In this document: positions 1 to 41,300 of the stretch, piece by piece | Position numbering within the stretch: the stretch's first letter is position 1 | Layout of the letters: every line of letters begins with the position of its first letter | Origin: Ascidiella aspersa | Taxonomy: Eukaryota | Reading direction: 5' to 3' | DNA length: 64,000 nt | Assembly: GCA_963924565.1 (NCBI GenBank) | Contig: OZ004614.1 | Location: 25,606,001 to 25,670,000 of the forward strand | Translations under genes and position numbers: made by a program | Notes under the pieces: generated by a model | Seen by the model: the letters and a program-made list of their open reading frames with translations, nothing else | The model's database searches: none | What the model was told of the DNA's origin: nothing

Positions 1-899
1 TTAACAACAAACAGCATGAGAGGATCGAGTCCCTTGCATCCAGCAACGCAGAACAAGATAAGAAGATCAACTCTCTCCTGGAAACTGTTCAGAACATCGC
101 TGAAATCACCACCAAGCTCGTGAAGGAATTGCTTCTCGAGTTCAGTAAGAAGGTTAACAAGTGCGTGTTCAGCAACGACATGTTCTCCTGTATGTTGGCT
201 CCTGTCCCAAGGCCGGCCTACACCTTCACACAAAGCAGTAGCCTTGGTGAGTTTGACAGAAATAATATGATGTAGCTTGAAAATGAATCTCAAAGTCAAA
301 CAGGTCGAGTAAATCGGCATTTTCTTGATAAAGGCCGGCCTACACTTTCACACGAAGCAGTAGTGAGAATGGCAGTGATACCACGTTGGAGTATGACATT
401 TGTAAATACTGAAGTTGTTTTGCAAAAGAATTCCCGAAGAATTCGGGCAGTTTTCGGTTAAAGTACATTTGGGTTTAATATTTAGAAAAACTATTGTTGT
501 CCTTTAGCTTCGAATAGTATAAGATTGGAAACTTGTATAAGCTTGGAAACCTTACATTTTGAAATAAATACGAGTTAATTAGGCTATCTGCCAAGATCTT
601 TTTGCTATTAGCTTTGAATGCTTCTAATAAGTTAAAAATTGTAAACGATTTATTTGTGTACACTATGTACGGATTTGTAATGTAGCTTGGTAATAAACTG
701 CAAAGCCAAAAAGAGTAAATCAACACCATCCTGATTAAGACGTTTCGATTCGAACTTCTATCATGATCAGTCAATGTTACTTGTTGATGTCGATCTACTC
801 AACCTCTTCGGTGTTGATTTTCATTTCAGTTGCTAAGTCTGTTGAACCTTGCATTTTATTTCAGATGCCGCTAAGATCTTGGCCGAAGTTGCCGAATAA
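1..899 (+). CDS. 3' end of an unidentified, probably coiled-coil protein gene (exons <1..246 and 865..899)
   Basis: Open frame from base 3: NNKQHERIESLASSNAEQDKKINSLLETVQNIAEITTKLVKELLLEFSKK... with heptad-like character. Donor CTTG|gtgagt at 246/247 and phase-matched acceptor tttcag| at 865 give ...SL-DAAKILAEVAE*. If unspliced, the frame stops at 273-275. Confidence 0.6.
670..835. mobile_element. Repeat family B copy (hammerhead-like motif 734-775 -) with inverted partial copy
   Basis: ATTGA CTGATCA T GATAG aagttc GAATC GAAACGTC TTAAT; homologous to 17670-17915 and 41020-41125. Confidence 0.65.
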
Positions 900-2823: not shown

Positions 2824-5800
2824 CTGGAAGTAAGAGTTGATTGTATTTGTTAGAAAAGGTTTGTATACTTCAGTTTAAATTTATACACAATCTTGCAAGA
2901 TCAGATCACGTTATATCAGCTAAAAGTTTGCCGAAGCGCTTGTGAACGCAGTTTGTGTTGGACTAGCTAGTCCATTTAATTTAAATCCTCTCAAAAAAAT
3001 GCCACTTTGTGTTTTTATTTATCAAAAAAAATTCCACAACTGATAAGAATATATGGCTGAAGTTTTAACGAACGTTCAATCTAACACTTGTGATGAAGAT
3101 TAAGACACTGAAGTTATCAATTTCCAAATTCACGGTTGTTAACTAAAATACGTTCCAGCGAAGCTATTCACTGCATGAGCTTACAAATTCTATTGTTTGG
3201 TTGAAGTTTATGGCAATAAATAATAAGAACCTAGGTATAAAATAAAGCTTTCGTTTGTACGAATCGAGTTTTGACCAGGGCTGCGGAGTCGGTTAAAAAT
3301 AACCCGAGTCCCGAGTCCCGAGTCCCGAGTCCCGAGTCCCGAGTCCCGAGTCCCGAGTCCGCAGCCCATGCTTTGACAGGTTTACATAAATTTGGATTCC
3401 ATGCGAAAAATGGAATCACGATTCCCACGGGTTTCCCGTCCCCATTAAACCCAATCCTCACCCGAAAAGCTCCATCCTGATTGGTGCATGGCTCTATGGC
3501 CAGAAGTCCGAGTGAACCTTTCTGGCCTTTCGCCCCCAGAGGGGTTTTCTCTCATCCGTGGCCCGTTGGTCGACGGCGAGGGGCTGGGGGCCCTGGCGCC
3601 GCTGTTTCTGCCTGGGGTAAGTCCCTGCTTTGCCTCGTCCCTGGCGTCCAAACGGTTGTAAATGGTTGGAGGTCTGAGAGGTCTTTCAACAACGCTGCCA
3701 TGAGATTGGACAACGTGGATCTGTGGGAAAAAATGCTTGAAAGTTATTATTTGACGTTAAAAAAAGACTAACAAAAACCCATAAGCATGCATGAGGTTTC
3801 ATTGGCTAAATACTTCAGCAAACAGTTGTTTTTCGGTTTTGCAAAGGCATCAAAATTGTAGAAATAGGGCTGGGAAATTTTAAGTGTGTTATTTGCACAT
3901 GGAGGTATAGATCATTGTGAAAATAATTTAAAACTATGGTTTGAAGATGGAGGCTAAAACACGCACATGTGCATTGCGTTGCGTATTCCAAATAAAACAG
4001 TTGCATTAATTAAATTGTAGGAATACAATTAGGAAATACAACAGGTAAAGAATCAATAAAAGAAAAATGTTCTGTTTATCCTGGTACGACGTAAATTAAA
4101 AAACACATACACAGAATTACTGTGTTTTTGTTGGCTTGACTGGAGTGTTTTAAGTTGACTTAAGTCACATTTTCAGTTGACTCGATTTCAGTAAACCTTA
4201 GTTAACATTTTAGGCTGACTTCATTGGACTTCGGAGCACTTTTAAATTGACGTGATATAGACTTAATTGCGTTAAAGTCGCATATTTTTGTTAAATATCT
4301 AAAGTTACATAAGTGATCTTAATTCTCAGTTTTTAGTCGACATGACCTAAGTGCACTTAAATTATTTTTTTGAGTTGACTTGACGCTGACTTCTAAGTTA
4401 ACTGAAGCCGCAGGTTGTGATGAACTTAAATAACAATATATAGGTAACTGCTGTGCAGAAATTTTCCAAGTTGACTGAACTTCATTTGCACTGGTATAAT
4501 TTTTCTCAATAAACTTTTACCTCGTTTTCGTCAAACACAACTTTTCCGCGACTTATCACCACCAGCGGCGCTGCGGAGCTCTCCAGTCCATCGAACGCGT
4601 TCGAACAATCGGCCTTAGTGACGTTGAGGGCGGCGGCGGAGGCGGCCAATGAGACGTGCTGCTTTTCCCGCCAAACGACCAGGTCGGCGTCGGATCCAAC
4701 GGCCACGAGACCTTTGCGCGGGAAAATGTTGAAGATTCGCGCCTGATTGGTGCTCGTCATGGCAACGAACTGATTCTGGTCGATGAAGCCTGGCTCCTGG
4801 ACACAGAGAAAAGGCGTTCGATAATATTAGAGCAGTTCTATTATAACTGAAGTTGTGATTAATACAGTGTGTGAATCTAACACTAGAATGCATTTTTTTA
4901 ATATATACTTTCTTTTTTCTTGCACCTTATTATTGGAGCGAATAATACAGCGTTTAACAACACAACCATAGCACCGTTGCCTGTTGCATCCTGTTCATAA
5001 AACTAGGCTGCAGTGAGGTTCGAACTCACGACCTCGGTCAAACTGGGACCGTCGCTCTACCAACTGAGCTATTCAGGCTCTTTGGCCTTTTCAAATGCCT
5101 CAGGTGACAGGGATATTATATATGCATTAATATCAAACATAGAATACTCACCACTGCGACGCTCCACAGCGCCATCATGCGTTCATAAACTCCATTAGTT
5201 CCTGGTGGGATTCGTGAAAAGTCAGCTTTACCGAGTCTGCTCTTGATGGTGTTGGTAAAGACGGAATGACCGCTCGATACGCACTGAAGTGTGCCACTGG
5301 ATGTAAAATATTTGGTTTAGTTATAGAGGGCAAACTATACTGAATAATTATCTGAAGGGTGCCACTGGATACAACATAATGCGAGAAGTTGTAGTGGGAG
5401 TTGGGATTACCGGAGTGTACTAAATGTATTAACTACATGGGATGATGATGTCTGATAGTTTTCAGATCGGAGCTCATACTCAATACCAAGTAATAGTGTA
5501 AGGTGCTCGTTCGATAGCCTATTATATGATGGTATTGCTGCCGATCCTATGTCAAAATCTTTTTGTGTTTTATGCTGTTTTCCGTATGTTTGGATAGCTT
5601 TTATCCAAAATTTTTAATAGAAAAACAACAATAAAAAACAACAATATTTTATTGAAAGAATCCACAAAATAGGCAGTACTGTTCGCCAAAATTTCAGGGA
5701 TCAGAATAAAATATTAAGTAGAGCTCCGTGATTATAGACGACTGTAACCGATGCCACTGGATGTAAACTGTGTGGTTAGCTGGAGCTTTTACTTAATTCT

Positions 5801-8800: not shown

Positions 8801-11800
8801 GTCCGCAGCCGGAACGAGTTGACCCCGTGCTCCTTCGACAGCTCCGTCATCGACTTCATGACGTCATCGTTCCATGACGTCACGTCCACGTGGTAGGTGA
8901 CGTCACAGCAGCTGACGTCACCGGACTCCAGTCGCTCCTTGTGGGCGGTTAAGGGGCTGGTTTGATCGGGTGTGACGAAATCGACTGGAAAGGTAAAAAT
9001 AAGTAAGTAAACTATGGAAGATTATTTTAAGAAGTTAATATGAACCATTTGTTTTCACGGTTTTCAAATTGTTTTTAAGTGTTTGTTGTTCGCATTCTTG
9101 AAATAAATGTAAATGTATAAACGCATTAAATTTTAACTTCCATCCCCAAAGGAGATATGTCAAATAAATTATTTATCCCTTTTCCAAAAGCTAGACTAAA
9201 CAAAGGAAATGTTATTTCGTTAACTTGTATATAAAATTGTACATGTGTAATAAATATCTTACACAGATTAATTTGGGATAACATATTTCTCTCAAAAATG
9301 ATATATTAGTCCTTTTTTAAACCAGGGAAGTGTTTGTTATTTTTTTTTTGCAATACTGATTTGGTTTATACTAAATTTTAAACAAGCAAGGTGCGTTTAA
9401 GAAGTGTACCGCTTACAACGAAAGTCAGTTAAAAATAATCAACCAATAATTCGAATAAATTCATCAAACATTTAATTTGGAAGATTCTTTTAAGATTATT
9501 AACGCCTTCCTGACTGACTAACCTTTGTTCGCAGTTGTACAATTCTCCAACTCATACCTTGCTTGTTTAAAATATAAACCATAATCATAATCGCTGACTT
9601 TAAAAAAATGACAAAAACTTCCTGCTTAGAAAAAAGACTAATGTAATTTAATCGTTAGAAAAAATATACATTTTAAACATTTTAGACATTTTAACGTATT
9701 TTTGCTTAAATCATTGATCAACAGGTTCGGTGAGTTTGCGATGGCTTGCGGTGAATTTTTAATTTTTTTTTTTTGAACTATTAACGTTCAAGTAATTTCT
9801 AAACAGCCTTTATCCGCAAAAATCCCGCAATTCCGCCTTTTACTCATTTCCAACTCACACACGGTGGTGGTTCCCCCAAGTAGTGCCGCCCGCGTCCCGC
9901 TGTAGAAGTCGTCGGCCGTTGTGACGTCACAATCGTCCAAGGGGGGTCGGGATGAGAAGTGTGTGGCGACGTCGACCCCCCCGGGCAGGATTAGAGCGTC
10001 CCTGGCGTCGATTATCTTCACACCGCCCGGAACCGTTAGGTCGGTGCCAAGTTGTCTGGAAAAAAAATTGCAAGTTGAGTTATCTCGTTTTGTTTTAGAT
10101 TTTACGATGCAATGAGAAAAAGTGCACCGCAAGAAAAAAAGGTTTTATCTTTTTTTTTTTTTTTTTTTTAATCTTTTTTTTTTCACAATACTAGGAGAAA
10201 AATACGCCGAAAACAACATGGGTTTTCTTGTAAAATTTCACGAACGTGTGCATTGTGCTACTACCGAAAGTGAACGATATCAGTTGCTAATGCACAAATA
10301 TGTGTTTGATTATAATTTTCCATTTATTGAACCGTGAGGTCGGTGTCAAGTTGCCTGTCTGGATAAAAAAAGAGCGCTTCTTCACTTTTGTACGTAGAAA
10401 CTTATGCAAAAAAAAATACCGCATACCACAACGCATATTACGTAATAAGAATATCAAAGCCCATACAGAAGTAGGTATCATTTTGAACGTTTCGAATAAC
10501 TCTTTATTCATTTTCAACACAGAGAGAAGTCACTGATGGTAAGTGTATATATAGTGCTAAGGCAGACATCATAAAGAAGGAAACGTGGATAGATACATAA
10601 TCTAAACCGGGTGTGCGGCGATTAGAAGGTAGGTCGCCGATAGCAGATAAGGCCATCCACGTGATCAGATGTTGAAAAGATAGAGTGGTATAGAAGCTTG
10701 GTCTGCGTTAATTTCCGGGTTGTGCCGTGTTATTTCTACGGTTTCCAACACCGACTTGTCGCAAGAATCTTGGGGTTATCAAAATCTGTTTTGTGACCAG
10801 GATTTTGATGCAAATGCCTTGCCACGTCTGTGTCCTGCGTGGACCGTGATGAAGGGTCGTGGTTGTCCATACGCACTTGTAGGTTACGCTTGGTTTGTCC
10901 AATATATGTAGAACCGCACGAACATTGCACTTTGTATATAACTCCATGTTCTTATTACGTCTTACTACTGATATTCTTATTACGTCTTACTACTGATATT
11001 CCTATTACGTCTTACTACTGATATTCTTATTACGTCTTACTACAACATACAACGCATATTATTTGGGTTAGGGTGCGGGTTAGCGTTTAGATGCTGGTTG
11101 GTCAAGGTCAAGTGTTATTATATTTATTCTAACACTTGACCCACCCTCACCCAAACGCTAACCAAAACAATGTACGTTGTTGTATGCAGTATTTCTAGAC
11201 TGTTTTTTTTGGTTAACTTTTACGTACATAACTTACTCTGTGCCACCAAACAATTATTTTGTTAGTCTAAGTTTAAATCATACAAATCTAACATAGACCT
11301 ATATATTTCACCTTATAGTTCCATTTTCAATGAAGACATCCGCTCTGAAAGTGAGATCGTGATTCACCACCTTCCCGCCTTTTAGTAGGATCTTCTCACT
11401 CTGAAGAAATCATTTCAATGTCAACAGCAAACATTAGCCTCTTACGCCAAGCATGTACGGTCTGGCGTTGCAAAAATGTCATAAATGTGAATTGCCATAA
11501 TTAAATATTCGGCGCTGGTCTAGAATCCTACCACAACACAGAACATTTGGGTTAGGGTGCGGATTAGTGTTAGTGTTTGGGTAGGCCGAGTATTATTATT
11601 AAATACCTGACCCGCCCTAACCCAAATAATATACGTCTCTTACGCTAAGCCTGTACTTTTTGTTGACGTTGCAACAATTGCATAAATGTTCATTGCCATA
11701 ATTAAATATTCCTATTTTCAGATATGGTTCATTCCAACTCAATGTTTTGTAGACTTAAACCTATAAGGCAGCTGTTTAGGTTCAAACTTACACCTGAGAT

Positions 11801-15200: not shown

Positions 15201-17669
15201 GTTGATTTTCACAGCAAAAAAAACAAAATTATGACAAAAATAAAAATATGACAAAAATCCAATTAAAATTCCACTGAGACTTGGTATTTGCAATATATTT
15301 TTTTATTGATTTGACGATTTGTCATAAAAGGGTCTTGAAACAAAACTAGATCAAGAGTGACTAAAATTTATCATTTAATGTATCTTTTTTTCCTTAGATT
15401 TGTTTGTATATGAGCAATTGGGTCAGATTTAATAAGAATATCAAAGCCCATACAGAAGTAGGTGGCATTTGTAAACGCTTCTAATATCTCTTTATTCATT
15501 TTCAACTTTAAGCTTCATGTTCAACCTTTTAAACCTGCTTTTTCTTGCTTTTCTGTAGTTGTTGTTTCCATCCACGCAATTGAGATATGGCGAAATTAGC
15601 ACGTCTAGCATTTACATACCGAAAGCCGGGAAGGAATTCGTTAAACAGAAAGGCTCAAAGTTTGGCGTGTTTTGCTGGTGCCTTAGGCAGATTCAGTTCC
15701 TGCAGAATTGTTGCGCAAATCTTCATATTTGCTTGTGGAAAATAAATTTGCAAAGATTTCGCCACTCTTTGTAATAATTACGCCATTAGTTTGGCATTTA
15801 CAATTTGCCTCTTCCAAATAACTGTTTATTCCTTATTTCAAGTTGAAATGTCGAAGAAATATTTCAAAGATGCAATAAAATGTCTGCAACGGCTGTATAT
15901 ACGCTAAACGTGATTTAATTGTGTTTTTTTACATTCTAAGTTGTGTTAAATTGTTTACTTGAAGAACCAGCTTACTTTATACTTTTCAAAACTCAATATG
16001 CGGTGATTTTCATCATTTGATATTACTTTTTTACTTTATAATATTTTTATTTTCAAATCTAAGTAATTATTTGTTACTTCTTTACTTTTAAAGAATTCCT
16101 AAACTATTTCTTTACAAGTACGATTAGACCTGGGTAACTAGAACTATATTTCGTAAGAAAAGAAAATAAAATTACGCCTGTAAAAAGTTAGCAAATCATG
16201 ACGTCATAACTGCAAAAACAAGATATGACCTAAAATTTCGTCCCGTATAATTGAGAAGTATTTTTTCACAATTATAGGATTTGTGTGGTTTTTAATCAAG
16301 TTGGGAAGGCCAGCACAATGGTGTTGTGAAGTAAAGTTTATTTTTCCTTAAAAGGCGTAATATCAATTAAGGTGCAACAATTTTCTGGACTTAAAATAAA
16401 ACACGTCTGGCTGTTCTAATCAGCTTATCTTCTATTTTAAAATGTAGGAACGCAATTTGTTTATACCCATTTTAACACCTGACCTGTGTCTCTTACACCA
16501 CACCAGAAGTAAATGTGTTACGTCAGACTTGGAAACCATAAGCTATCACGCTCTCATCACGTGACAGGCGCTACAGGAACAACGCAATAACAAGATCGCA
16601 ATAGGCTAGATTTGTTCCGCTTCTAAACTGTGATCTCTATTTTAAAACCCGATTTTAAAACATGTGCCAAGTGTTGCGATCTAGTTAGACTCTTCACTTG
16701 TTTAGCATTTTTTTTTTGCAGAAAAAAATGTTAACAATAACCGTTTTTAAGCAAAATAGGAATCCGGCCTATATTGAAAGAAGCCATTTCTGAGCAATAC
16801 GCTTTGAAACTGCAATAGTTTAAACATTTTTTTTTCATCGCCGAATGTTACGGAAGATTTAAGCCGTTGATTCTCACGAAAAACAACAGCTGATTTCATC
16901 ATCTCCATGTTTTGAGTACAATAAGGCAACTATGGCTAAAGTGAAATATTCCAGTAGTAAACGCCGTTTTAAAACAGGAAGTTTTAAAAACACAATATTG
17001 TTAAACATATTGCCAAATGTTATAGATCGTTTAAACTGTGATTTTCACTAAAATAGAACAGATGATTTCATTTTTTCTCAATGTTTCGTGTAAAATAAGG
17101 CAACTGGTTATACTAAAAGAAGCTAATTGTAAGCGCTGCTTAAAACTGGAATACCGTATTGAAAAACACAATTTTTTTAAACCTGCTGCCAAACATTATA
17201 AATCATATTTTAAATTTGTGATTTTCATTAATTTTGTTAATGTTGGGAGTAAAAAAACAAGAAAGCCGGCTATATTGGAAAAATGCCTTTAAAATTGAAA
17301 ATTTAAGGAACACATTTGTTCAACGTATGAAGAAATTTTAAAGACCAACAAAATAAAAAATAAAAACGCGATTTCATTTTTTAACCGTTTAAAGGTAAAA
17401 AAAGCTTGCTGAATTGCAATAAAGCCGTGGTAACAGGGAAGTGGTTCTTAAGCGTGATCTGTTGCTTTAATGCCCCGAGGCGGCGCCAAATGTTCCTTTT
17501 GGCCTGGCTTGGAACCGCAACCTTCATATACTGGTTAGCTCCTGCCTAAGTCACAAGACGATTTATTTCAGGAGCATTGACGAGATTGGAAACAACCTTT
17601 TCAGAATCATCCGCTACGCAAGTCGAACCACGCAAGTAAGAATCTTTATATTAAATTGTCAATTAATCT

Positions 17670-17915
17670 CAAAGCCTAAAATGTCCAGTCAATCGACATC
17701 ATCTTGATAAAGACGTTTCGATACGAGCTTGTATCTTCAGTTAATGTGGCTGAGAAGTAATTCAAACCTCACTTAAAACTTACGTTCCATCATTTATAAG
17801 TGTAAATTGAATAAAGTTATATTAACTGTTGGTGATACAAGTTCGTATCTAAACGTCTTTATCAAGATGATGTCGATCTACTCGACATTTTTGGCTTTTA
17901 GATTCATTATCAAGC
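17670..17915. mobile_element. Inverted pair of repeat family B with minimal hammerhead motifs (17707-17745 -, 17821-17862 +)
   Basis: ATTAA CTGAA GATAC aagctc GTATC GAAACGTC TTTAT and ATTAA CTGTTGG T GATAC aagttc GTATC TAAACGTC TTTAT, with the arms in opposite orientation. Confidence 0.7.
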
Positions 17916-17961
17916 TACAATACAGATGTGTGTATAGTTTTTAAACATTTTTGTTTTAATG

Positions 17962-18222: not shown

Positions 18223-18719
18223 TTTTAATGACTTATTCTCGACAGCTCTATAGTTTTCTATTGTGGTTTTATATTATAAACATCTAAGATATATGTTGTC
18301 AGTGTTCTTGAAATATAACGTCGCTGACAATTTATAATTCAAACTATCTTTACTCCCTGATATTTAATCTCGTAAAATCACTTGCAAATATATTTGGGCG
18401 TAATCTGTTTGTTGGCTAAATAAGGGAAAAGTCTATTATAATAGTACGTTGTGGTAAAATAAAATAATTCTGTTATTTTATTGTTTGTATCGGGGTCTAT
18501 GCCTGTTCCAACACTTCTAGTTGTTCATCTTTTACCCATATCGTAAGAACCAAATTTACAAAAAAAGATCTAAACACAGACAGTTGCGCCAACTTTTGGT
18601 GTTACTGTCGTATTTTGTCTTTTAAGAAAGTTGTATTACCTGTTTTTACCCTTGGGTTGTTCTTTTTGGATCGTAATTGCATGTTGTTGTTTTTAAAGAA
18701 TCTTCAGTCTTTGTTCATC

Positions 18720-18767
18720 ATGGATTTCAAGTTGTTGTCCCTGATTTGCGCTTTTCTCGCAACTGCG
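18720..18767 (+). CDS. Acidic TM protein exon 1 (signal peptide)
   Basis: MDFKLLSLICAFLATA then donor gtaagt. Confidence 0.75.
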
Positions 18768-21700: not shown

Positions 21701-24700
21701 TATTATACAAACTAAAAAATGCATAAATTTTAAGCAAAACATCTGTCAAGCCACCAATATTTTAAGTAAAGTTTTTTAACTGTTTTAAATTTCAAATATC
21801 CTGTTTAAGATCATCGATTGGAATCAAAATGCCAAAATACGTTTAATACATTTATCATACCTAAGCATAATAGAATTTCTCTTAAACACACGAAAACAAT
21901 TCTCGGGAAATTGTCGGATAATTACTGCTTGTTTAATCCTGAGCGCTACCGTTCCGCACTTAGTATTCAAAATAGAATCGCGTCTGTAGTTTGATCAGTC
22001 GTTAAGAGTTATATAAAATCGTGACAATTTTTTTATTAAATCACGATGATAGAGCATCGCGTTGAGAACAAAAACTATACTCTTGTTTAATATAACTTGT
22101 ATTAAAACTTAAGAAGAAGTAATACAAAATTGTATATAAAATAACTTTAAGCTAAATAGTGCAGCAACACTGAAAAAACATAATGCAGCAAAATTTATTT
22201 TTTCGGTAAAAAAGGAAAAATGTCAAAAGCTAAAAACTTGTGGCATATGGTAAAATAGAAGATAAATGCTATACATAATATATTTTATATATAAATACCT
22301 CATTTATTCACGCCCAAAAAAAAATGTTGTCAAATGAGATTTTATAATTTATAATGCATTTAAATTGTTTTTGTATGTCCTTTTTCTGTGCAAATATCAA
22401 CATCTTAGCGAAATAATTCAACTTCTTATTTAATTATTGTAATGCAAACTGTCAAATACAAAAAGTAGCATTATTCCTACAATCCAATTTCCATTTACAC
22501 CAAGCTTTGTAAGCACATTTTCTCGCAAGATTGGAATTTGTGGTTTAACGATAACATTTATGCCACGGCAAATGCTTGTTGTAGACTTAAGGCAGATTGA
22601 ATGATCTTCGGTGCATTTATCGCCCAGAGCATTTACCTAATTTGCAAACTAAGCTAAAAACAAGAAAAACTTGTCTGAACTTTATGCCCGATTAAAAGCT
22701 GGCTTTGTAATAGTGACTTGCATTTTATTCTGGCTGCAAATTTCTTTACCATAGGGCACTCGACCAGTTATTGGATAGAAACAAACAATAGACAAAAAAT
22801 CAGACTTTATCAAACAAAAACTTCTATATCTTCAATTTTTTACGGCTCTTCCGGAATTTCCCCTTTTTCCGATGGGAAAAAAATTTGCCGCTCGCATTTT
22901 TTGCTTCCATAATTTCATTATTTTTCCGTCGATCCAACTCCGCAACCACGATCCGCTTATCCGCAATTTACCCTCCACCATTTACACACACATACCCAGC
23001 GTTTTAAACAAGTTATTTGCGAAATAACTTAAGCCCAAGCCATTATTAGAGCAAACCAACTCCAAGTGACATTAATTATATAATATTAAAACGATGCACC
23101 ATTAAAACTGTGAAAATCGTCTGAATATTTTTGAGTAATAATTCAACTAAAAACTAACAAAAAACAGCATCTTGCAATAAACTGTAAAAAGAAAAGCACT
23201 TAATTTTAACCCAAGTTATTTGACTCACTGACCTAAGTCCAAGTCAAGTCATTTTAAAACAATGACTTACGTGCACTTAATTATTACAACAGCGAAAATT
23301 ACCCTCCACCATTTAACCACAGTACTCTCAGGACAAAATGTCCGCCGACCTGTTTAAGCTTTACATTTACCGATCGTAACTTCTGCTTCCGTTATTCCAT
23401 TATTTTTCTGTCGATCCGAATCCGAAACCACTATCCGCTATTCCGCAATTTACCCTCCACCATTTACACACATCACAGCCAGGACAAAATGCCCGCCGAC
23501 AATTCGCTATAGACGCCAAAATAAACGCCCCGTTTAAACTTTAAAATTTTTCGCCTGGTTTTAAAACATTTACCAATCGTAAATTTTTGCTTCCGTCATT
23601 TCCTTATTTTTCCGTCGATCCGACTCTGCCACCTCGGTCTACTTATCCGCTAAGTCAAGTCGAGTTATTTTACAAAAACGTCAAGTCAAGTCAAGTCAAG
23701 TTAAGTAATTTTACCCAAATGACTTAAAGTCAAGTTAAGTCAAGTCAAGTCAAGTTAAGTAATTTTACCCAAATGACTTAAAGTCAAGTTAAGCCATTTG
23801 AAAACAGTGAGTTAAGGAGACTTATTCATTACAACACCGCAATTTATCCTCCACCATTTACCCACAGCACTGCCAGGACAAAATGCCGGCCGACAATTCG
23901 TTTGAAGCTTCCCCGACGGACTTCCAGTTTCCGGATGACGGTAAAATGTGGAACGAAGCGGAAAACATGGATATGAAGCCAGACCGGGAGTTTGTGGGAG
24001 TCGAGGAACTGAGTGAGGACTACAAAGCGGAATTCGAGGAGATCAGAGCCAGTCTCGCGGAAGTGGAAGGAGAGTTGTCCTCGCTCGACGTGAGTCCGCC
24101 TTTTACCACACACCAACTATTATATTAATGTAATTGTCGCTCTAGAACAGTGGTTATCAACTTTTTAGCTTTATGCTAAGAAAATCTCAAATATTTCGCG
24201 GCATACGTTTAACAGAACAACAATAGAGTTAATTTTACAAAAGCCCTTAACACACGACAAAATATAATATGCAAATGTCTCAGTATTGTAAATTTGTAAC
24301 GATAGTGCGTATTTAAGTCAAAAATTTTTCAATATGTTTCGTGGCGTTACATTTTTAGAGATTTAATTTTTAGGCTGGTTATTGTTACACAACAGAAATG
24401 TAATCGTATTGTAGTGTAGGGGGGCATGGCCTGCAAACTTTATTTTACCGAAACACCGTTCCGGACTGTTCAGGCTTACTTTCACTGCTGTTTCTAAGGT
24501 TTTGTGACGGCCATAAAAAGGTAAAATAAATAACTTAAAAAAAAAAAAGGAAAAGTAGAAATCATATATTACGAAAAATGAATAACAAACTAAAATCATT
24601 AACGGATATACTTTGGTTGTGCTAACTCCCCAAATCTGCAAATAAAAACAAATAAGACATTGGGGTTTAAATGACGTCACCAATAGTTATGTGACGTCAT

Positions 24701-27700
24701 TGCAAACAAGTTCTAAACAAGTTGTTTCCCCAGAGCTTGATGCATGCGATTGGATTGGCTTACAACAAAGGATTGAAGTCGGTGATTCTGCCCGACCCAG
24801 CAATGGGAGGCGAAATTACATTGAAGGTTTGTTCTTGTGTGAGACTGATCTTTGATAAGAGATCCTTAATTAGTTGTAAATTAAGTGTTAATTTTAGTTT
24901 TTAAGACTATTCTAGCTTTCAGTTGTCATTCGTATATCTTGGTGGCAATCAATTTGAGGAACTAAGACACAGGATATATGTTTGTTTGGTTGCAAATAAG
25001 GCTATTATTACTTGCGCGATTTTGTGATTTTGAAAAATCGCGATTTCGAGATTTAGTGATTTAGTTATTACGTGATTTAGTAATTTGGCGTTTTCGTGAT
25101 TTCGTGATAACGTGATTTCGTGATTTCGTGATTTCGTGATTTCGTGATTTCGTGATTTCGTGATTTCGTGATTTCGTGATTTCGTGATTCGTGATTTTGT
25201 GTTTCACGAACAGGAGATCAACGCGATCGCGATGAGCGTGACAGCGACTTTGAAAGAGCAAGTTGAGGACATCCAAGCGATGATCACATCAGTACTTGAC
25301 AACATCAAGGAGTCGTCGGATCCAATGAGCAAGTAAGTTAAGCTTATGAAAGAAACATCACACTACCACCTCCCGATGTCGGTGTAAAAGTTGCGAAAAT
25401 GTGACAATCTAGTTGTGACCAGACTTGGTCAACTACGTAATATTGGTTTTCTAATACAATGAATTACAGCAAAATGCGGCTAATTCTGATCTAGTTTGTG
25501 AATAACTTGTGTGCTCTAATTCGAGTTTTAATCTGAGTTAACTGTATTTCTAGTTACTAAATAGAAAAAAAACATTTTAACTAATACTCCTCAGTCGGAA
25601 AACTACGTAATTTTGGCTTTCTAAATCAATGAATTAGAGCAAAATGCGGCTAATTCTAGTCCTAATCTTATTTGTGAATTGCTTGTGTGCATTCTAGTTT
25701 CTTTATTTAGATTTTAACAAAAATTCTAATTTTTTTAATTCTTTGGTCAAAACTTGTAGGCGACTTTTACAGAATGAAAAGCATTGACTATGCTAAAACA
25801 TATAGAAACTAGCACACGCCTTGAAAGTAGGCCTAATAATAAATATTAAGTTCTGTTCTCGTAATTAACTGATTTACAAAGAGGATCTGGTCTTTTAAAG
25901 AAGTTCGGGCATTAAAAACATTTTTTGGGTATGAAAACATTTTCAAAGATGACGTTACAAAGTTATTTCACCACATAACGTCATAAAAAAGTAATTCTAA
26001 AAATATTATAGAATACGTTTTATTTTTAATTCCAAATTTTTTGCACATACGTATTTAAAATAGGCAAAAAGACATTTTTTTGTGGGGGGGGGCATGTCCA
26101 TACCCCCAAGATCCGACACCTGGCCGCAGGGGTTAAATTAAGGCGTATTTCCGTAATGATCCATAACACCTTTGTAATATAACTTTTTATTTAGAGTAAC
26201 ACCTTGCCAACCTAGAACCTCACCAAAATACGAACTTTGTTGTGTTTTTAAAGTTACTTCTCTATCGGTATCGGCCCGACCCGTTTGAGGCTAATAATTC
26301 GCGCCTTGTAATATGAATTAAGGTGAAACTTTTTTAATGGAATGTAATTAGCCCACCCGACCGTAGCCTTACAACCTCCTTTTAAACCCCACTCTCTTCT
26401 ACACAATTGTTGCATTTTTTTGGCACATTTTCACAGATGACGTCACAAAGTTATGTCACGACGTGACGTCATAAAGAAGTTATTCTCAAAAACTACAGAG
26501 TTCGTTTATTTTGTTCAAAAAATTCCCAATTCTGCGTATTTAAAATAGGCAAAAAAAGATTATTTTTTGGGGTATGGCCAAGCGGCCCAGCAATCCAGGA
26601 TCCGACCCTGGTCGTAGTCTAGTGGAACTAACCCATTGGATCGTAGCTTAGTGGCCTTCTTTTAAACCCCACTCTCTTGTTACAGACAGGATTTGGTGAG
26701 CGCCCTTGAAGTGAGTAGAGCTTACCTGGAAACTCGCATCACTGAACTTGAAGGATACAGAGCCAAGCTCACAGTCTGGGGGATGGACATCGGAGGTGGA
26801 GAAGCAACTTCCACTCCGGATGCAGATGAAGATGCAAGTGGGGATCTGGAACTCGCTGTGGATGGCGCGGAGGAAAGTGGAGACTTTGAGCTGTCAACTG
26901 ATGAAGAAGAAGACACATCCTCTGACATGGGAGGAAGCGGGGATGTTGGTTTTGCTCCTGATGAGTCAATGGATGAATTTCAGGAAGAGGCAGACCAAGA
27001 TGGACAAGATGATTTAGGTTTGGCTCTTAATGAGTTGATGGATGAAGCAGATGCAGAAGAACAAGAGGAGAGTGGGGATTTTGGTCTTCCTTCTGATGAG
27101 TCAATGGATGGATCTCCCAAAGAAATAGATGAAAATGAACAGGAGGAAAGCGGGGATTTAGGTATTACTCTTAATGAGTTGATTGATGAATCTCCGGTAG
27201 AAATAGAAGATCAAGATGAACTGGATGAACAGGAGGAGAGTGGGGATTTTGGTCTTCCTATAGATGAGTCAATGGATGAATCTCCGGCAGAAATAAATGA
27301 AGATGCACAGGAAGAAAATCAACATTTGGGTCTGTATCCTGATGATCCTTTGGATGTTGACAATGAAGAAAGTGTAGATTTTGAGCTTCCCATGGATGGA
27401 GCGGATGAGGACTATGAAGAGGAGCAGAGCGGGGACATGAGGCTTCCCTTGGATCCAATGATGCGGGCTGCTGGAGAAATGGAAGATAATGATGATGATT
27501 CAGACGACAAGTTGTCCAAGTTCTTGTCCAGTCTCTTGCAAGGATCGACGCAAACCGAAATGGCTCAGTACTTCGGTCAGAAGATCGTGAAGAGAGAAGC
27601 CGGAGACGAGTTTGACACTACGGTGGTCCCTGATCTTCCGGACATTGACCAAGAGGTTCCAATGCAGAGTGAGTTCGAGCAACTGCTCAGCGAGGGTTTG

Positions 27701-29296
27701 GCTTTAAATGACGACGACACTGACGCAACATCTGGTGATGGTTACGTAATGCCTGGCGATGATGGCGTCATTGACAACATCCATGATGAATTTATACCAA
27801 TAACGCAAACCCGTCTGTTAAAGGTCAACTTCAACTCTATAAATTTTACCATGGATGATCAAACTGAGAGTGATGTGATCATGGAATCAACGGAAAGTCC
27901 AGAAACCGATCAGCCGATGATCCCGGAAGAACCAGAAGATGTTGAAGAACCAGAAGATGTTGAAGAACCAGAAAATGTTAAAGAGCCAGAAAATGTTAAA
28001 GAGCCAGAAAATGTTGAAGAACCAGAAAATGTCGAAGAAATAGAAGATCAAGATGAACTGGATGAACAGGAGGAAAGTTGGGATTTTGGTCTTCCTATAG
28101 ATGAGTCAATGGATGAATCTCCGGCAGAAATAAATGAAGATGCACAGGAAGAAAATCAAGATTTGGGTCTGTATCCTGATGATCCTTTGGATGTTGACAA
28201 TGAAGAAAGTGTAGATTTTGAGCTTCCCATGGATGGAGCGGATGAGGACTATGAAGAGGAGCAGAGCGGGGACATGAGGCTTCCCTTGGATCCAATGATG
28301 CGGGCTGCTGGAGAAATGGAAGATAATGATGATGATTCAGACGACAAGTTGTCCAAGTTCTTGTCCAGTCTCTTGCAAGGATCGACGCAAACCGAAATGG
28401 CTCAGTACTTCGGTCAGAAGATCGTGAAGAGAGAAGCCGGAGACGAGTTTGACACTACGGTGGTCCCTGATCTTCCGGACATTGACCCAGAGGTTCCAAT
28501 GCAGAGTGAGTTCGAGCAAATGCTCAGCGAGGGTTTGGCTTTAAATGACGACGACACTGACGCAACATCTGGTGATGGTTACGTAATGTCTGGCGATGAT
28601 GGCGTCATTGACAACATCCATGATGAATTTATACCAATAACGCAAACCCGTCTGTTAAAGGTCGACTTCAACTCTTTTACCATGGATGATCGAACTGAGA
28701 GTGATGTGATCATGGAATCAACGGAAAGTCCAGAAACCGATCAGCCGATGATCACGGAAGAACCAGAAGATGTTGAAGAACCAGAAGATGTTAAAGAACC
28801 AGAAGATGTTGAAGAACCAGAAGATGTTGAAGAACCAGTGGACGAGGATTCAAATAAGACCGACGACGATTTGGTTGGAGGAAGCTATGCGTCTTCTGAC
28901 TTCTCTGAATGGTTGAAGGCAGTAGATAACTTTGAAGACAGCAAGCCAACATATTCAACAGATCTCGAGGATGAGAGCGACTACGATTTAGCTGGAAATA
29001 GTACATCTTCTGATTTCTCTGAAATGTTGAACGAGTTAGAAATGATTAGACATGAAGACATTGAACCAACCGGCTACGGCGACGATTACAACCCAATAAG
29101 CCGGAGAGACATGCTCATTCTTATTGCCTTTGGCTGCTTTGTCTTCTGTGTAGTAGTTGCTTTGATCCTTCGTGCACTCCGTAAACGTGCTAGGCGCCCA
29201 GGGGTACTTATTGGCGCCAACAGGGTTGGGAGTCGAGTTCCTTACCAGATTTACTGCAACGATGTGGAAAAGGGAGGCTTCAAAGTTCCAATGTAA
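18720..29296 (+). CDS. Uncharacterised acidic type-I transmembrane, proteoglycan-like protein, 5 coding exons, 1030 aa
   Basis: Exons 18720-18767, 23868-24089, 24734-24826, 25214-25332, 26686-29296; GT-AG, in phase, 3093 nt. Signal peptide MDFKLLSLICAFLATAHC, helical N-terminal region, D/E-rich repeats, TM segment MLILIAFGCFVFCVVVALIL followed by basic RALRKRARR. Confidence 0.85.
23650..23830 (+). repeat. (AAGTC)n-rich repeat, probably TE subterminal; relatives at 4130-4490 (reverse), 23220-23290 and 58980-59330
   Basis: Runs of caagt/aagtc plus a ~48-bp duplication. Confidence 0.7.
23868..24089 (+). CDS. Acidic TM protein exon 2
   Basis: cccacag|HCQDKMPADNSF...LAEVEGELSSLD|gtgagt. Confidence 0.85.
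24734..24826 (+). CDS. Acidic TM protein exon 3
   Basis: tttccccag|SLMHAIGLAYNKGLKSVILPDPAMGGEITLK|gtttgt. Confidence 0.8.
25015..25200 (+). repeat. (CGTGATTT)n octamer array
   Basis: Perfect units at 25111-25189, degenerate units upstream. Confidence 0.9.
25214..25332 (+). CDS. Acidic TM protein exon 4
   Basis: cag|EINAIAMSVTATLKEQVEDIQAMITSVLDNIKESSDPMS|gtaagt, phase 2. Confidence 0.83.
26686..29296 (+). CDS. Acidic TM protein exon 5 (2.6-kb repeat, TM and cytoplasmic exon)
   Basis: Contains the 867-aa ORF 26693..29296; acceptor ttgttacag matches phase 2. Confidence 0.92.
27199..28836 (+). repeat. 837-bp in-frame tandem duplication; each unit ends in 18-bp EEPEDV repeats
   Basis: Unit 1 is 27199-28035 and unit 2 starts at 28036; near identical, with a 6-nt indel. 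Confidence 0.95.
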
Positions 29297-30876
29297 AAAG
29301 TTTTCGTTCAAGCTACACACAGTTATCACCATGCATTTGACTTTTGCCAGCTCAATGGAACTATATGATTTCTTGTATCCCCACACAATACGTTTGTTCT
29401 GTTAGCTCCATGAAATTTTATGTTTTCTTGTATCCAACATGTTCAATTTCGTAAGCTCCACAAAATACTTTTGTTTTGCTATCACCACACAATATTTGTT
29501 TTGTATCCACACAACACTGTATGGACTGACCAAAACGATTGATTACACATATGAAAAATGTTGCTTGATTTAATATAAACAGGTACATAATTTTGAAATT
29601 GTACAGTTTTCTCTTTAAGTTCTTTGTATAACATTACATAATGGTTGTTTCTGAAGCATAAAAACATTGTGTTCTCTCTATCTTCTTTTTACCTTTGAAA
29701 AACAAATGGACGTGTATTTTTTCCCTGTTCTTTGCGGTTTTGCTTTTATAAGCTGTAAAATTGCGCTGCAGTTTGTTAAAATTCGTGAAAGCTGTTTAAT
29801 GTTTTCAGCCACTAGTTCAATATAAAGATTACCGGAAAAAGTAATATCTTGTAATCATGTAATGGTTAGATATTGTTAAAAAATATAGCATGGCATTGTG
29901 TAAAAATGAGTTGTAACGTTTGTCTTTCATGTATTTTATATATTTTGTATTTGGTTTGGGATTATCCTAAGTGCGCTTTTGCTTGCCAAACTTACATCAA
30001 TACAAGACAACTTACATTGATGAAAAACAGGCAGAGGTTTATTGATTTAGTCCACATATTTTGCTTTGTTATTTATTTCCAAGCTTGCACTGAATATGTG
30101 ATAATAGAAATCACCTTGAGCCTTGCAAGATAAATGTTGACCTTAATTCCTGATCAGTAACAGCAGAATACTCTAGCAAAGATAGAAATTCACGTCAGAC
30201 ACTATTAAATGATCTTAAAAGATATATTTCGCCAACAAAGGCGCCAAGAGTATTAATTCTATTAAAGCCTAATAACTCTTTATTCATTTTCAACATCTTG
30301 ATAAAGAGTTATTTAGAATCATTTAAAATGCTGCCTACTTCTGTATGGGCTTTGATATTCTTAGCACGTCGTACTACAACCTCCAACCATTATGCTCCAA
30401 GGTAGAATCGCTACTTTAGATCGCAAAAAAAAATCCTCAAAAATCCTATATTACTACAGCATCGGGGCATGTCGCAAAAATCGACCTAAATTTCTACTTC
30501 AAGTACAATAAACCTTATCTGAGCAGTACGTCTTGGTTCAGGATGATTAAAAAATAGGGATTCAGGAATTAATAGCTTCTGGGTTAGACATCGTGCATTT
30601 AAAGAAAAAAATATATATTTTCATGGCATTACTTATAATAGAGTGCGGCCTAAACCGTTCCAGTGATTAATATTATCAACCTTTTATAAGTGGTGAGTCC
30701 TTCCTTTAAGTTCGCAACACATGTTTGAAATATCCGCCATTGGCGTCACAAGGAGGTCTATGACGTCACAATGAATACCGCAAAATTGAGTCAACTGGCT
30801 AACAATTGGGCGAAAAAGAGTTGAGATTCGATAAGCCATGAAAGATTGAGAAAACCAAAAGAGTAACAGGGTTGCG

Positions 30877-35306: not shown

Positions 35307-38300
35307 CTGAAGAGGAAATTTGGAGGTTATTGTAAGTAATTATGGACTCTAGTCATAAAACCGAAATAAAAACAACATCAACGTGGGAATAAAAACAATT
35401 CTGGATACGACCAAAATAGGAATAATACCAAATAGCCGTAGTAACGTATAAAAAAGTTCTAACCCCGTTGGAAGACGTAACTGGTCCGAATCAGGTCTAA
35501 ACAACATTTTACCCAACCCCAAACCCACCCATAAGTACATCACTAACTCCCCTAATAATTTCAACCCTAAATCCATTTTCTAATCCCACCCAAAAGTTTT
35601 GCCCAACTCTGGTGTAGAAGAACATTGAAAGAGGCGCGAAAAACATAAATCGTGGCGTTAAACAATGTGGGCATTATCAACCAACAAAAAAACGCACGTA
35701 AAACAGTTTAAGACACACAAAGCTCTTATGAGGGCAACAAAACGCCAGAACCGCGCAGAAAGTTAATGTTGCGCGTCAAAACAGCATCTAGTTGTGGGCC
35801 AACATGTGATTTGCCACACACGACAACACAAAGCGTTTTTTCACTGGAGTTAGTGCAACTTGAGGGCGAGGCGGCAAATTGCATTCAACTGTCCAAACGG
35901 TGCGTATCAAAAATGCGTAACATAAACCTTAGGCTTCCCAAATTGGAGCTTTAGTGCGTTGGATTTGGAGGGTTTGTGAGTTTTTACGGTTGTAAGGCAA
36001 CTCTCTGGGCGGATAGAGTCCATATTTTGTCGGTAATTGGATTACTTAACAGAGTTAAGCGGCTAGCAAGGCAGTATATTGGCAAAAGGTTCTTGTTCTA
36101 AACGCTGCATTTTGAGAATTATCCCTGTAAAGTGCACCGGAAATTGGCTTTTACAGCAAAGATTTGGTTTAAAATTAATCCGAGTAATTTCCTCCACAAC
36201 AAAGCGATATTTAAAGTTGTCGTTATAAAAAGTCGACATTGGCCTTTTGAGCTTTTTCACAACGATAAGAGTTATTTCAAAACGGTCACAAAATCTATTC
36301 TGTATGGGCCTTGACATTTATTCATTCCACGTCTAACTACAACCTCAATTTTAAACTACATCCTCAATATTACAAAGTATACCAAGTTATTTTTTACCAG
36401 AATTTTTAGAAGTACAATCAATAGTCCAAAGTATATCCGCCAAAGTATCGTTCCTTTGTAACTCACCTCAGTTCTTTATCGTCCATGTCTCCCATTTTAT
36501 CAGCTATCTTGGTAGCAGTGTCCTTAAGTTGTCTGAAGCCTTCGGGGTCGGTGGTGGAATAAACCAGCATAATGGCTTCGGCCCAGCGGAAGTGATGGTC
36601 GATTGATGCAAGACGCATGCCCTGTAATCAATGCCTTTTGTTAATTGCGTGTTGCGGTAATTGTAGTGTATCTATACCTTATTTTAGAAGCAGAGTTTAA
36701 GTTGTTTAATATAGGCTAAAAAGCCATATTTTTGTAAGTATATGCGACTAAAAAAATGTTTAATAATTATAAAAATATGTAAAATCTTACAGCATGGGAT
36801 CGACTTGTCCTTATTAAGGTCGCAGATCACGTGACTTACCTTGTCGGACGTATCTTGGATTGTGACGCGAAGACTTTCACCATCTACACTTGCTGATCCA
36901 TTGCACGTCATATCTAGAAAAAAGAGGTATTTTTATTTATTTTTGAAAAATCAAGAAGTTGTTTGCGACATTATACGGAATTTGTAAATCAATGGCGACA
37001 ATGATATTTAATTGAAGCTAGTTTTTCACTAAAAAAAGTTAATGATTTTATCAATTCTAATTGTTTTAGGGAGATTTGCACCAAAATAAAACTTACAGAC
37101 ATTTTATTGAGAAAATTTATCACACGAATTGCAATTAATAGACAAAAAATTATTTAAGGCAAACTTAGATTTCTGTCCTGTTAATGGCAGTAAAACAAAC
37201 GTGTTAGGTTGTATGGCTTTTGTATGCAAATAAATGAGCGCTACAGCACGAAAAGGGCAGAGCTATAAAAAACTGAATTTTGACAAGCGCTATATTCTCC
37301 ACATTATTGCACGACCATGTAGTAGTTGAAACAACAGCGTGAAAGAATGCGTAAAACATGGAGGTCCAGTATTTTAGACGAAAAAAGTTCAAAATATTTA
37401 TGAAGGGTTTTTATTGAATCATCCCTCGATATCCACCATTAAAAAAACGATACATGGAAAAAATAATGAGCCCAAGTAGATCGCCATCCATGTTGTGTAT
37501 GGGTTAACAAAAAACTTCCAAAAAACGATTAATATAAAAAAAAATCTAAAATACGGTTAAAACGACGAGTGAACAACTTTTTAGTTCACAGTTAAACTTT
37601 AGCAACTATTGTGTGATTCATCATACGCCTGTATTTTAGAGTTCTATTTTATCACTACATCGCCTATTTATCACCGCATTCATTATGATGACACAATATA
37701 AGTTAACAGGCCCCTAAATCGAGCGGTTCACACATTAACGTAACAATAGCCCAATTATGACGAGTTTTCGAGCAGTTTTAAGGCGGGGTCTTTTATGAGT
37801 AAGAGCTTTCTCGCTAGAAACCATTACAGGGGACTTAAGTTGGTCGCAAAACCTCTTTTTTCATGTTTACCCCCCGGGCGTTCTGGTTACTGCTACTGCT
37901 GTTGGTCGACATTTAGGGTTGGCGGTGTAAAATGCGTCGCGCTGTGTTTGTGACTCATAATGGTCCGCGAAAGTGATTTTATCGCAGCGAAACACGATCA
38001 TTTTTGGCCGAACGATGCTTTATAGTGGGTTAGTGGAAAATGTTGCCAATTCTATTGAAATTGTAGTAAGAATAACAAAGCTCATACACAAGTATATGTA
38101 GCATATTGAATGTTTTGAATAAATCTTCGTTTATTTTCAATTTTCAAGATAGAAAATATATTCTAAACGTTCAAAATGCTACTTATACTTTTGTATGGGC
38201 TTTGATATTCTTACTACGTTTTACTACAACCTCTAACCATTATGCTCCAAAGTCTATTTGAAATTGCGTTATTCATTTTTTTCACCTATTTGCAAAATAA

Positions 38301-41300
38301 GGTATCAAATTTTGTTTTTTTAATAAAGCAAAACGTTACTCACCGGTTTAAACTGTTTTTTCCTATGAGGCACACAATTGCCAGGTTTCAGATTTCACTT
38401 TATTAGATTTTTTACCGAAAGAGGTACTTTCAAGGTTCAATACGTCAAACCGCTTGTGGCAAGAACTCGTTAGTTGGAAGTAATTGGCCACAACGCTGAC
38501 GACCCTGCACGCATTTTGACGTACAACTGCGGCAACAAAAAAATGTTTTTCCGGAAAAATTGCGATTTCGCCACCATACTAGGGTACTATAGTTACACAC
38601 AAATTCACTCCCGAGCCCCCTCTAATTGAGCGTGTTATTGTGACGTCACAGCCAATACGCGCGCGTCCGCGAGGCGTTTCGGCGTTGAGAAAACCAAACG
38701 AGAGTTTAGGCTTTTGAAAGGTTTCTAGTTTCGGGCGCAAATGAAAATATTCACGCAGAAAGATTGGCGCTTTACTTTGTTATGTGTGATGATGAATTGA
38801 TGAGAAATTAGACTTTTACTCTTTCACTTTGCCACTAAAGGTTATTCTTCGATCGTCACTCAACAGTAAAGTTTCTACAGGGATTATCGGGTGAAATTAA
38901 TAATATTTGGTTGTTTGGGCTCTTTTGTCATGTTTTTAAACAACTTAAGTTAGGATACACGGGTTTTTGTTAGTAATTTCTAAGACATAACATTTCATAA
39001 AATCGACATTTCGTTGTTTTCAAACGTTTCGGCAATATCCTAACTATTAATATACAAGTGTGTATTAATAAATAAACAGGTCCTCTGGTAATTGTTATTG
39101 TGAACTCATGCGTATACTAGTTGCAAGTCAACTTTCTGTTGGTGAAAAACAACTTCGGCGCTTGTCTTTGGCGCAAGTGCGACTTACAAAGCAGTTCATC
39201 CTAATATTATCAATATACACAACATGTGCATATTAGTTTCAAGCCAGCCTCTGTGCGATCTTTGATATTTTTCTACATGTCACAATTTCCCTGGACTTGA
39301 TATTTTACTTCAATCTTTGCGAAATCTAAACGACAAAGGCACGTGCGTTGATACTTTAGCCTGTATTTCGATCCTTGATTACAGGTGGATGTTCACCTTT
39401 GTGTGACCCAAGGCTGATGGAAATGACTGGGACAACACAATCAACACCACACACGTGGGGAAATATTATTTAATTTCTATTAAAGGGCGTATTTTAATGG
39501 AATTCAAAACCATTGTCAGCAGGTTTCTGCTTGTCGGTCACTGTTCCGCTGACGCGTATATTAGTAATAAAAACTCAAAGTTTTAAAACCTGAGTAAAAC
39601 CAGGATCAGACATTTTTTAAATAAATATATAATTTGCCTTTACTGGCGATCCCACTCGGGGTTTTAAACTTGATCATTTGATTTATTGTACTCAATCGTG
39701 CACAAAGAGTTTCATCAAAAGGCTTGCCAATAATTGCAAAAATCAAATTCATAAAAATTCCTAATCACCAGTAAATGTGTAGTAAGGTTAGGCCCCTACA
39801 GGATAAGTATCCTTTTGAAGGTTTCGAATAACATTTAATTCATTTTCAATATCCCGATGCCTACTTCTGTATGGGCGTTGATATTCTTATTACGTCTTAC
39901 TACAACCTCAACCATTATGTACCAGTGAATGTAATATTCCATTTTAGTCAGTTTGCAAAGTGTGTTGCAAACGTTAGTAAGTGCCGTTTTGAACTATGTT
40001 ATCCCTGGAGACTCCACGGATTTACCCTCCGCGGTTTGGTGCAGGGAAAAATTCGATTTTGGTGAGAGGTCATATGCAGGTGGAGCAGTACGACTTCCTC
40101 TGGTGGAAATACCCAACCAATTTGACGCACAAGTTTAAAAGGTGGATTTTAAGTTTCAAGTCGTAAAAAAAAACAATTCGTGAAACTACGAGAATAAGAG
40201 GCTAACAAAGGTCTAGTAGAGACCGGTAAGTGGTCCGCAGTCGTACGATCACATAACGTTTAAAATATTATTCCGATGATACAAACAATTCCTTTGTTTT
40301 GCTTTAAATCTTGGAGCATAATGACTGGAGGTTGTAGTTAGACATAGTAAGAATATTAAAGCCCATACAGAAGTAATATTCCTACTTTGTATTGGATTTG
40401 ATGTTCATTCTAGGGTTTTTGTGGTTTTAAATCGTCTGCTCATAGTATTGTCTGCATGAGATTATCTTGCTCACAGAAAATTAGGTTAAAAAAATTACAT
40501 TGTGGTTATTCGTGGAAATTCTAATTAAAAAGGCCCCCAGCGACTCGCGACAACCTCAACGTCGCCCAAGGGAGCGCGACACGCGGTAGTCGAGATGTCG
40601 CGCCGGAGAAAAAGCGCGCGCTATCGCGACCTTGATCGGACAAATGCGCCGCTCTCATCCAGTTGCCAACTGCGAAATGCACTTAGCGTAGGAGAGCAAG
40701 GCTTATCTCGTGACACGTGCTTTGTATACTTGATACTTGCGCGATAAGATCTCTGTGCATCGCAAATTGCGCTGCCTTGAGAAAAAATGCAGGAATAATG
40801 GCTTAGGATGCAAATTGATAAGTTCTATGTGTTGCTCTTTTGGCCCCAAAAGGCCCTGGCTTACTTTGAAGGCGAAAAATGGCCTAAAATGGGGAAAATA
40901 TTGGGTTGGATTTCAAAGATATCTTGGCGAAAGCCTAAAGCAATACACTGGATATAGGCGGTAAATAATACGCTGCTATTGATGGCAATATCCTACAATA
41001 TACTTGGGTACTCTAAGGACGGATTTGTAATGTAGCTTGATATTGAATTTAAAAAGCCAAAAAGGTCAAGTGAGTCGACATTGTCTTAACGTTTAGTTAC
41101 GAACTTGTTCCATCTTCAGTTAATGTTTATAAATCCTACAAGTTTCTTTAATTCTACCATCCGAACAATAGCTAATTATATCGCCTCTTCAGTTTCAAAT
41201 AACGTTTTTATGAAGTTTTGTTGCAATACAAATTTTAACCAATGTTCTAAAACAACGTCAAACAAGCCAAGATCCAAATAAACTTACAACTCCCGAGTCA

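Follow-up and report, generated by a model that had tools for sequence, protein, structure and literature searches.

Damaged minimal hammerheads in a genomic window of Ascidiella aspersa are almost certainly carried by truncated ends of a Penelope-like element

Minimal type-I hammerheads (min-HHRs) have been described in the pseudo-LTRs (pLTRs) of metazoan Penelope-like elements (PLEs) (Cervera and De la Pena 2014, PMC4209133), and EN+ elements of the Penelope/Poseidon type with inverted pLTRs are represented by Pen2a of Adineta (PMC3846280; overview in PMC8557442). The accessible parts of these and related reports further state that PLE insertions are flanked by duplications (TSDs) of 8–10 bp (PMC3846280), and that a G8C change abolishes cleavage in the hammerhead of an Anolis PLE (PMC11167929). 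Among the literature matches listed, none joined Penelope-like elements, ascidians and hammerheads. We analyzed a window of 64,000 nucleotides of Ascidiella aspersa (contig OZ004614.1, positions 25,606,001–25,670,000), in which a sequence-only reading had noticed a family of hammerhead-like repeats. These repeats are almost certainly 5′-truncated PLE ends (pLTR plus tail), inserted singly or head to head and carrying a minimal type-I hammerhead that is likely inactive in the window. This assignment is based on the link to an RT and endonuclease ORF, two classes of 3′ ends, the geometry of the pairs, flanking duplications and paired changes across sister families.

The window contains four minimal hammerhead copies (n = 4; Table 1), and both the sequence and a window BLAST confirmed the positions and strands that the sequence-only reading had given them. 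Alignment of each copy to an intact natural copy (79–85% identity over 123–139 nt) revealed a different lesion in each, also as claimed. The intact core (CUGANGA/GAAA with an NUH cut site) was found in 0 of 4 copies, and the hammerheads, mutated in all four, are likely inactive judging from these changes. An Rfam scan of the 64-kb window detected no hammerhead at E ≤ 5. The earlier term "dead relics" holds for the four window copies, all of which have damaged cores; elsewhere in the genome, no fewer than 551 copies have retained the core intact. The repeat exceeds the 40-nt motif: it reaches ~80–127 nt beyond C3 and, on the other side, a variable distance upstream of it. Of the two loci that had been read as inverted pairs, the one at 0.7 kb has a second arm that lacks a hammerhead. 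The 3′ end of the inverted arm at 17.7 kb was placed at +82 by BLAST and at +101 by local alignment, in which the end matches poorly. Window BLAST also revealed a fifth fragment of the same family at 0.3 kb. A search for TSDs at the 17.7-kb, 0.7-kb and 0.3-kb loci found none that was convincing. The fragment at 0.3 kb and ~28 nt of other sequence are enclosed by a 33-bp direct repeat (94% identical; 209–241 and 331–363), which is long for a PLE duplication and perhaps reflects capture at a repaired break.

Table 1. Positions in the window of the repeat copies, their hammerheads, flanking duplications and the neighboring host-gene features
Feature	Positions	Strand	Remarks
Fifth fragment, same PLE family	270–333	−	+31 to +94; no hammerhead core; from window BLAST, absent from the sequence-only reading
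Second insertion, tailed arm	654–781	−	Full tail; contains hammerhead 734–775
Hammerhead of second insertion	734–775	−	G8 to C and two stem II mismatches
Second insertion, inverted tail-less arm	785–828	+	Spans +42 to +86; without hammerhead
Likely splice donor of host gene, 5′-UTR intron	17636–17641	+	Inferred from sequence (GT); 6–25 nt before insertion
17.7-kb insertion, inverted arm	17642–17778	−	pLTR fragment without full tail
Hammerhead of 17642–17778 arm	17707–17745	−	3-nt deletion at G8-A9-U, one stem I mismatch; antisense to host gene
17.7-kb insertion, other arm	17800–17938	+	pLTR end and most of tail (to +112); 83% identity to intact copy
Hammerhead of 17800–17938 arm	17821–17862	+	A6, A9 and G12 changed
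Likely first coding exon of host gene	18708–18767	+	ATG at 18720, signal-peptide-like; acceptor before 18708
TSD of third insertion, left copy	40990–40998		9-bp duplication
Third insertion, single tailed arm	41004–41126	−	Contains hammerhead 41089–41124
Hammerhead of third insertion	41089–41124	−	G12 changed and 6-nt deletion across cut site
TSD of third insertion, right copy	41133–41141		9-bp duplication

Analysis of the whole genome showed that the consensus rebuilt from the damaged copies is real: the intact core pattern had 551 exact matches in 308.6 Mb, compared with 0 for the reversed pattern, and a looser minimal-hammerhead pattern had 3,256 matches, compared with 8 for the control. The core CUGANGA and GAAA with an NUH cut site, which the sequence-only reading had put up for a genome-wide check in its DNA form (CTGANGA/GAAA), is kept in all 551 exact copies. 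Hammerhead position numbers here follow standard usage. In an alignment of 8 natural sequences from 5 (sub)families, the core was invariant and the stems differed; both partners had changed in 9 of 13 pairs, including four pairs of stem II, the two inner pairs of stem I and C3-G8 (replaced by U3-A8). Pairing cells in the 8 sequences amounted to 86.5%, compared with 68.4% in shuffles and 20–46% with slid partners, figures that are not probabilities because the set is small, its members are related and the structure was drawn from the same sequences. The compensatory changes lie in helices I and II, and helix I is firm only for its first 2–3 pairs. The hallmarks of the type, an extra nucleotide between 9 and 10.1, G10.1-C11.1 and a palindrome at 15–16, were all present; thus, genome matches and covariation together support the earlier proposal of a minimal type-I hammerhead with an extra U. 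A family variant (locus L112, minus strand, near 2715) has a loop II that is 4 nt longer, with the same stems. At minimum energy, intact monomers form stem II alone and not the hammerhead (hammerhead fold −3.1 versus −6.0 kcal/mol).

The sequence-only reading had also suggested looking for a parent PLE, and an ORF with RT and endonuclease was found upstream of the family hammerhead. Upstream of its hammerhead, locus L023 contains the final part of an ORF that encodes a GIY-YIG-type motif and stops 99 nt short of C3, and VYK-CSC-YIGQT-R is visible in the endonuclease translation of the family represented by the window stubs (window-stub family). A search with the 202-aa C-terminal piece of L023 gave 151 matches among the best 150 of 673 candidates. 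All 14 fetched loci with the endonuclease region of the family also contained its hammerhead, and 7 of these 14 (the closest group) held an inverted hammerhead as well. The 433-aa frame of locus L071 matched RVT_1 with 32.1 bits (Pfam cut-off 29.6), and a PDB sequence search with the L071 ORF returned nothing below E 0.2. The 202-aa piece shared 42% identity (E 1e-52) with the C-terminus of an intact 843-aa sister ORF, which itself had a GIY-YIG match of E 7e-4 and 20.2 bits, below the Pfam cut-off of 22.6; Pfam on the family's own 202-aa and 141-aa pieces of L023 gave no GIY-YIG and no relevant match. By homology to the sister ORF, the C-terminus of the family's ORF is a putative GIY-YIG endonuclease. 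Since the repeat joins an RT and GIY-YIG-type ORF upstream, we identify it as the pLTR of a PLE. In the translations examined, RT and endonuclease are not separated by a Cys-rich linker, an absence that, going by the overview (PMC8557442), suggests the Penelope/Poseidon group.

Two sister PLE families have intact ORFs of 843–848 aa in a tandem pLTR-ORF-pLTR arrangement (L081, G000:C3:20855500-20865000; L083, G000:C4:6267500-6276500) and may have been recently active; further sister loci are L082 and L084–L086, and L084/L085 contain a run of near-identical 816-aa frames ~2.67 kb apart. The tail translation matches the N-termini of the intact sister ORFs, so the pLTR includes the first codons of the ORF. 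One sister PLE family has a GUU cut triplet, and a PLE copy at L077:2428-4347 contains a hAT-like 640-aa transposase frame (Pfam matches weak, below cut-off). For the window-stub family itself, no full-length or intact copy was found among the best-scoring candidates searched: the longest copy covers sister ORF residues 209–848 and is broken, and 0 of 18 and 0 of 2 tail matches continued into a long ORF (L152 goes on for ~10 codons). Because no full-length copy of the family was found, the 5′ end of the parent was inferred from the sister families. The copies surviving among those fetched are all truncated and broken, and most insertions are stubs of 130–400 bp. The family is probably unnamed; the supplement of PMC4209133 may list related motifs.

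The other large repeat family of the window is also a PLE. It includes a piece at 10440–10986 (minus strand) and matches the intact 843-aa sister ORF of L083, with 96% identity over the endonuclease end at 10742–10945. Its hammerhead is of the U3-A8 variant and has a core that is intact at 10486–10517 (minus strand). Other pieces of this type lie near 1822, at 15427–15505, 30250–30402, 38060–38260, 39819–39913, 40306–40374, 42916–43005 and 47695–47781, near 49523, 51689 and 53402, and at 61160–61311. An Rfam miRNA-like hairpin (38077–38203) overlaps an inverted pair of this family. The window also contains a tRNA-like match (5005–5078, minus strand; Rfam RF00005, 40.1 bits), which could be a tRNA or the head of a tRNA-derived SINE.

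At the 17.7-kb locus, the putative position of the pair within a 5′-UTR intron of a host gene is consistent with the predicted donor, acceptor and first coding exon (Table 1). Host-sense RNA reads were found on both sides (4 at 17575–17576 and 14 at 18734), and the RNA joints listed did not include one that links the two places. Downstream, 26666–29296 (plus strand) is a very acidic exon of 876 aa that contains an internal duplication of 837 bp (99% over 300 nt) and has a hydrophobic segment at its C-terminus; it likely belongs to one gene with the exons at 18708 and near 23900–24120. The two arms of the pair (94 nt, 84% complementarity) are predicted to pair into a single extended hairpin (−121.9 kcal/mol, z −14.9), in which the hammerhead at 17821–17862, the only copy in the sense of the host gene, is predicted to be locked with the other arm. 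No cleavage of the host transcript is expected, because this sole sense copy is both mutated and paired. That the host gene has co-opted the pair, whether as a hairpin within the intron or as a cleavage element beside the splice donor, is very unlikely: although the pair begins 6–25 nt after the likely donor and forms this hairpin, any inverted PLE pair folds in the same manner, the copies have diverged to 79–85% identity with lesions in the catalytic core, and stubs of this kind number in the thousands in the genome. Most likely, the intron carries the pair as a neutral passenger.

To characterize the form of the insertions, we scored 42 loci. They were drawn from the first 30 of the 551 matches, each of these 30 lying on contig C1, and from the 20 top-ranking of 55 DNA matches, and for that reason are not a random sample; duplicates (L017, L025, L027, L036 and L047) and references (L023 and L038) were left out of the counts, the window locus (L031) was scored apart, and at L041 and L049 the scored pair is a neighboring insertion rather than the central one. 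Head-to-head pairs made up 27 of the 42 loci, none were tail-to-tail, and 15 had no pair. A tail of 30–40 nt was present on exactly one arm in 26 of the 27 head-to-head pairs, pair sizes ranged from 127 to 399 bp, and the inner junctions differed in every copy. The 3′ ends were bimodal, with 28 of 60 arms ending at +80–98, 32 at +110 or more, and none between, while the 5′ ends varied continuously into the coding region. An exact 7–13-mer was common to both flanks at 14 of 29 pair loci, compared with 4.4% of 812 mismatched flank pairs, a difference that shared local composition may inflate slightly.

These data bear on whether the pairs could be MITEs, that is, non-autonomous DNA transposons with terminal inverted repeats. 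The complementary arms and the flanking duplications at 14 of 29 pair loci would suit such elements; however, the ends are asymmetric in 26 of 27 pairs, the sizes and inner junctions vary from copy to copy, 15 of 42 loci contain no pair at all, the length of the duplication is not fixed, and the arm forms the 3′ terminus of an element that codes for RT. The pairs have neither the fixed symmetric termini nor the uniform length and fixed TSD of MITEs. Terminal inverted repeats with TSDs of the DNA-transposon kind had been named by the sequence-only reading as a refuting observation; TSDs are present but are 7–13 bp and variable in length, as in PLEs, and therefore do not argue for a DNA transposon. 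The link to RT and the asymmetric ends already refute a MITE origin, to which we assign next to no probability. The preference of the sequence-only reading for inverted Penelope ends over MITEs is accordingly supported by the RT link, the pair geometry and the variable TSDs.

The same reading had offered retrozyme-like relics as an alternative and had proposed a search for tandem copies. Two same-strand hammerheads within 1 kb occurred at only 2 of 44 loci, and no array was found, which speaks against retrozymes. The RNA reads, from ~6% of one standard RNA-seq run (a weak test of cleavage), included 1,127 records, out of 7.79 million, that mapped to 631 nt of L023 in both orientations, mostly at the pLTR end. 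Of these L023-matching reads, 94% run on into unrelated sequence; they look like PLE stubs carried within host transcripts. In this sample there was no pile-up of read ends at the cut site, where the sequence-only reading had proposed to look for 5′ ends, nor anywhere on the 631 nt of L023, and the reads show no trace of cleavage. The ratio of sense to antisense depth rose from ~0.7 over the hammerhead to ~1.7 over the tail, a rise not counted as evidence of cleavage because a few host transcripts could cause it. A family of non-LTR retrozymes, spreading short non-coding tandem units as circular RNA, would share the type-I hammerhead in a short, high-copy non-coding repeat and, according to the accessible part of a preprint (10.64898/2026.07.22.740005), even a derivation from PLE pLTRs, yet it is scarcely credible here given the rarity of same-strand neighbors, the absence of head-to-tail tandem monomers, the 5′ ends that vary continuously into the coding region, the reads that continue into unrelated sequence and the link to a coding element.

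Under the PLE assignment, the stubs could arise as follows. Judging from the PLE literature, the protein of the element would nick AT-rich DNA, and reverse transcription would start at one of two sites just inside the start of the ORF; these two start sites would yield the short (+80 to +98) and the tailed (+110 to +127) ends. Early termination and a second, inverted cDNA would then give hairpin-shaped stubs. The tandem transcript of the parent would be cut after the GUC only if the hammerhead dimerized at the ACGU palindrome or if the element's protein assisted. Such a dimer is not available from an inverted pair, because any transcript of it has one arm antisense, pairing both arms. The window-stub PLE family is present in hundreds of copies in the genome and is ordinary mobile DNA of a type already described in print. 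The value of the result lies in repeat annotation, since short PLE stubs are readily misfiled as MITEs. In addition, the genome holds more than 3,000 minimal hammerhead motifs from several PLE families, two of them with intact tandem ORFs, and is therefore a convenient natural collection in which to study the function of the ribozyme.

In the PLE hammerhead, A9, the extra U and G10.1 spell AUG. Among the fetched loci, this in-core AUG was out of frame in 58 of 61 copies of the window-stub family and in 2 of 2 of one sister subfamily, and in frame in two sister families; in 56 of the 61 window-stub copies it opens a 9-codon uORF. An in-frame AUG at +36 to +45, 4–13 nt after the cut site, was kept in 4 of 4 groups, and the ORF of the window-stub family seems to start just after the cut site. 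One could suppose that the in-core AUG is a structural by-product rather than a start codon, and that the hammerhead cuts the tandem transcript ahead of the ORF and so sets up translation of the RT-endonuclease; we consider this unlikely. In the accessible text of one report, a viral type-I hammerhead cuts 7 nt before the start of an ORF, and type-I hammerheads of fungal RNA viruses can drive cap-independent translation (PMC13725137); that the PLE hammerheads play a comparable part in translation is conjecture. Leaky scanning, re-initiation or splicing could likewise account for an out-of-frame AUG, and among the fetched copies none that is both intact and full-length belongs to either out-of-frame group. 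Within the accessible portions of the literature on Penelope hammerheads and start codons, we found no statement of an out-of-frame in-core AUG. If true, the proposal would supply a testable function for PLE hammerheads, a matter still in question.

Compared with the min-HHRs, as far as they are described in the accessible text of PMC4209133, the hammerhead here is alike in being of type I without helix III, in its palindromic 15.2–16.2 and short helix I, in the extra nucleotide between 9 and 10.1 and G10.1-C11.1, and in occurring as thousands of solo copies, in opposite-strand pairs and with a U3-A8 variant (here in a sister family). The misfolding of the monomer agrees with the lack of monomer activity reported there, whereas helix II is 5 bp here and 7–8 bp in the Schistosoma families. 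With the EN+ elements outlined in parts of PMC3846280 and PMC8557442, the PLEs here share a single ORF of ~840 aa (here in sister families) with RT followed by GIY-YIG, and the head-to-head inverted 5′-truncated copy with a tail at one end and a TSD of ~9 bp; as in Adineta Pen2a (PMC3846280), the pLTR and tail cover the first codons of the ORF. In contrast to those elements, the family here consists of truncated, broken copies in the loci fetched, and its clade is assigned only by the missing Cys-rich RT-EN linker. Animal non-LTR retrozymes, in the extracts of 10.64898/2026.07.22.740005 and PMC7229834, resemble the repeats in their type-I hammerhead within a short repeat and their kinship with PLE pLTRs, but here there are no tandem arrays and no fixed monomer, and the repeats are directly continuous with a coding PLE. 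Likeness to the Poseidon element of Anolis (PAc; Frangieh et al. 2024, PMC11167929), in the portion of that report at hand, extends to an AUG that opens stem II and lies 26 nt ahead of the cut, to two classes of 3′ ends bounding the tail, which in PAc are two start sites of reverse transcription, and to the absence of RNA-seq read ends at the cut site. In PAc the in-core AUG is taken as the start of the ORF, whereas here it is out of frame in the window-stub family and in one sister subfamily.
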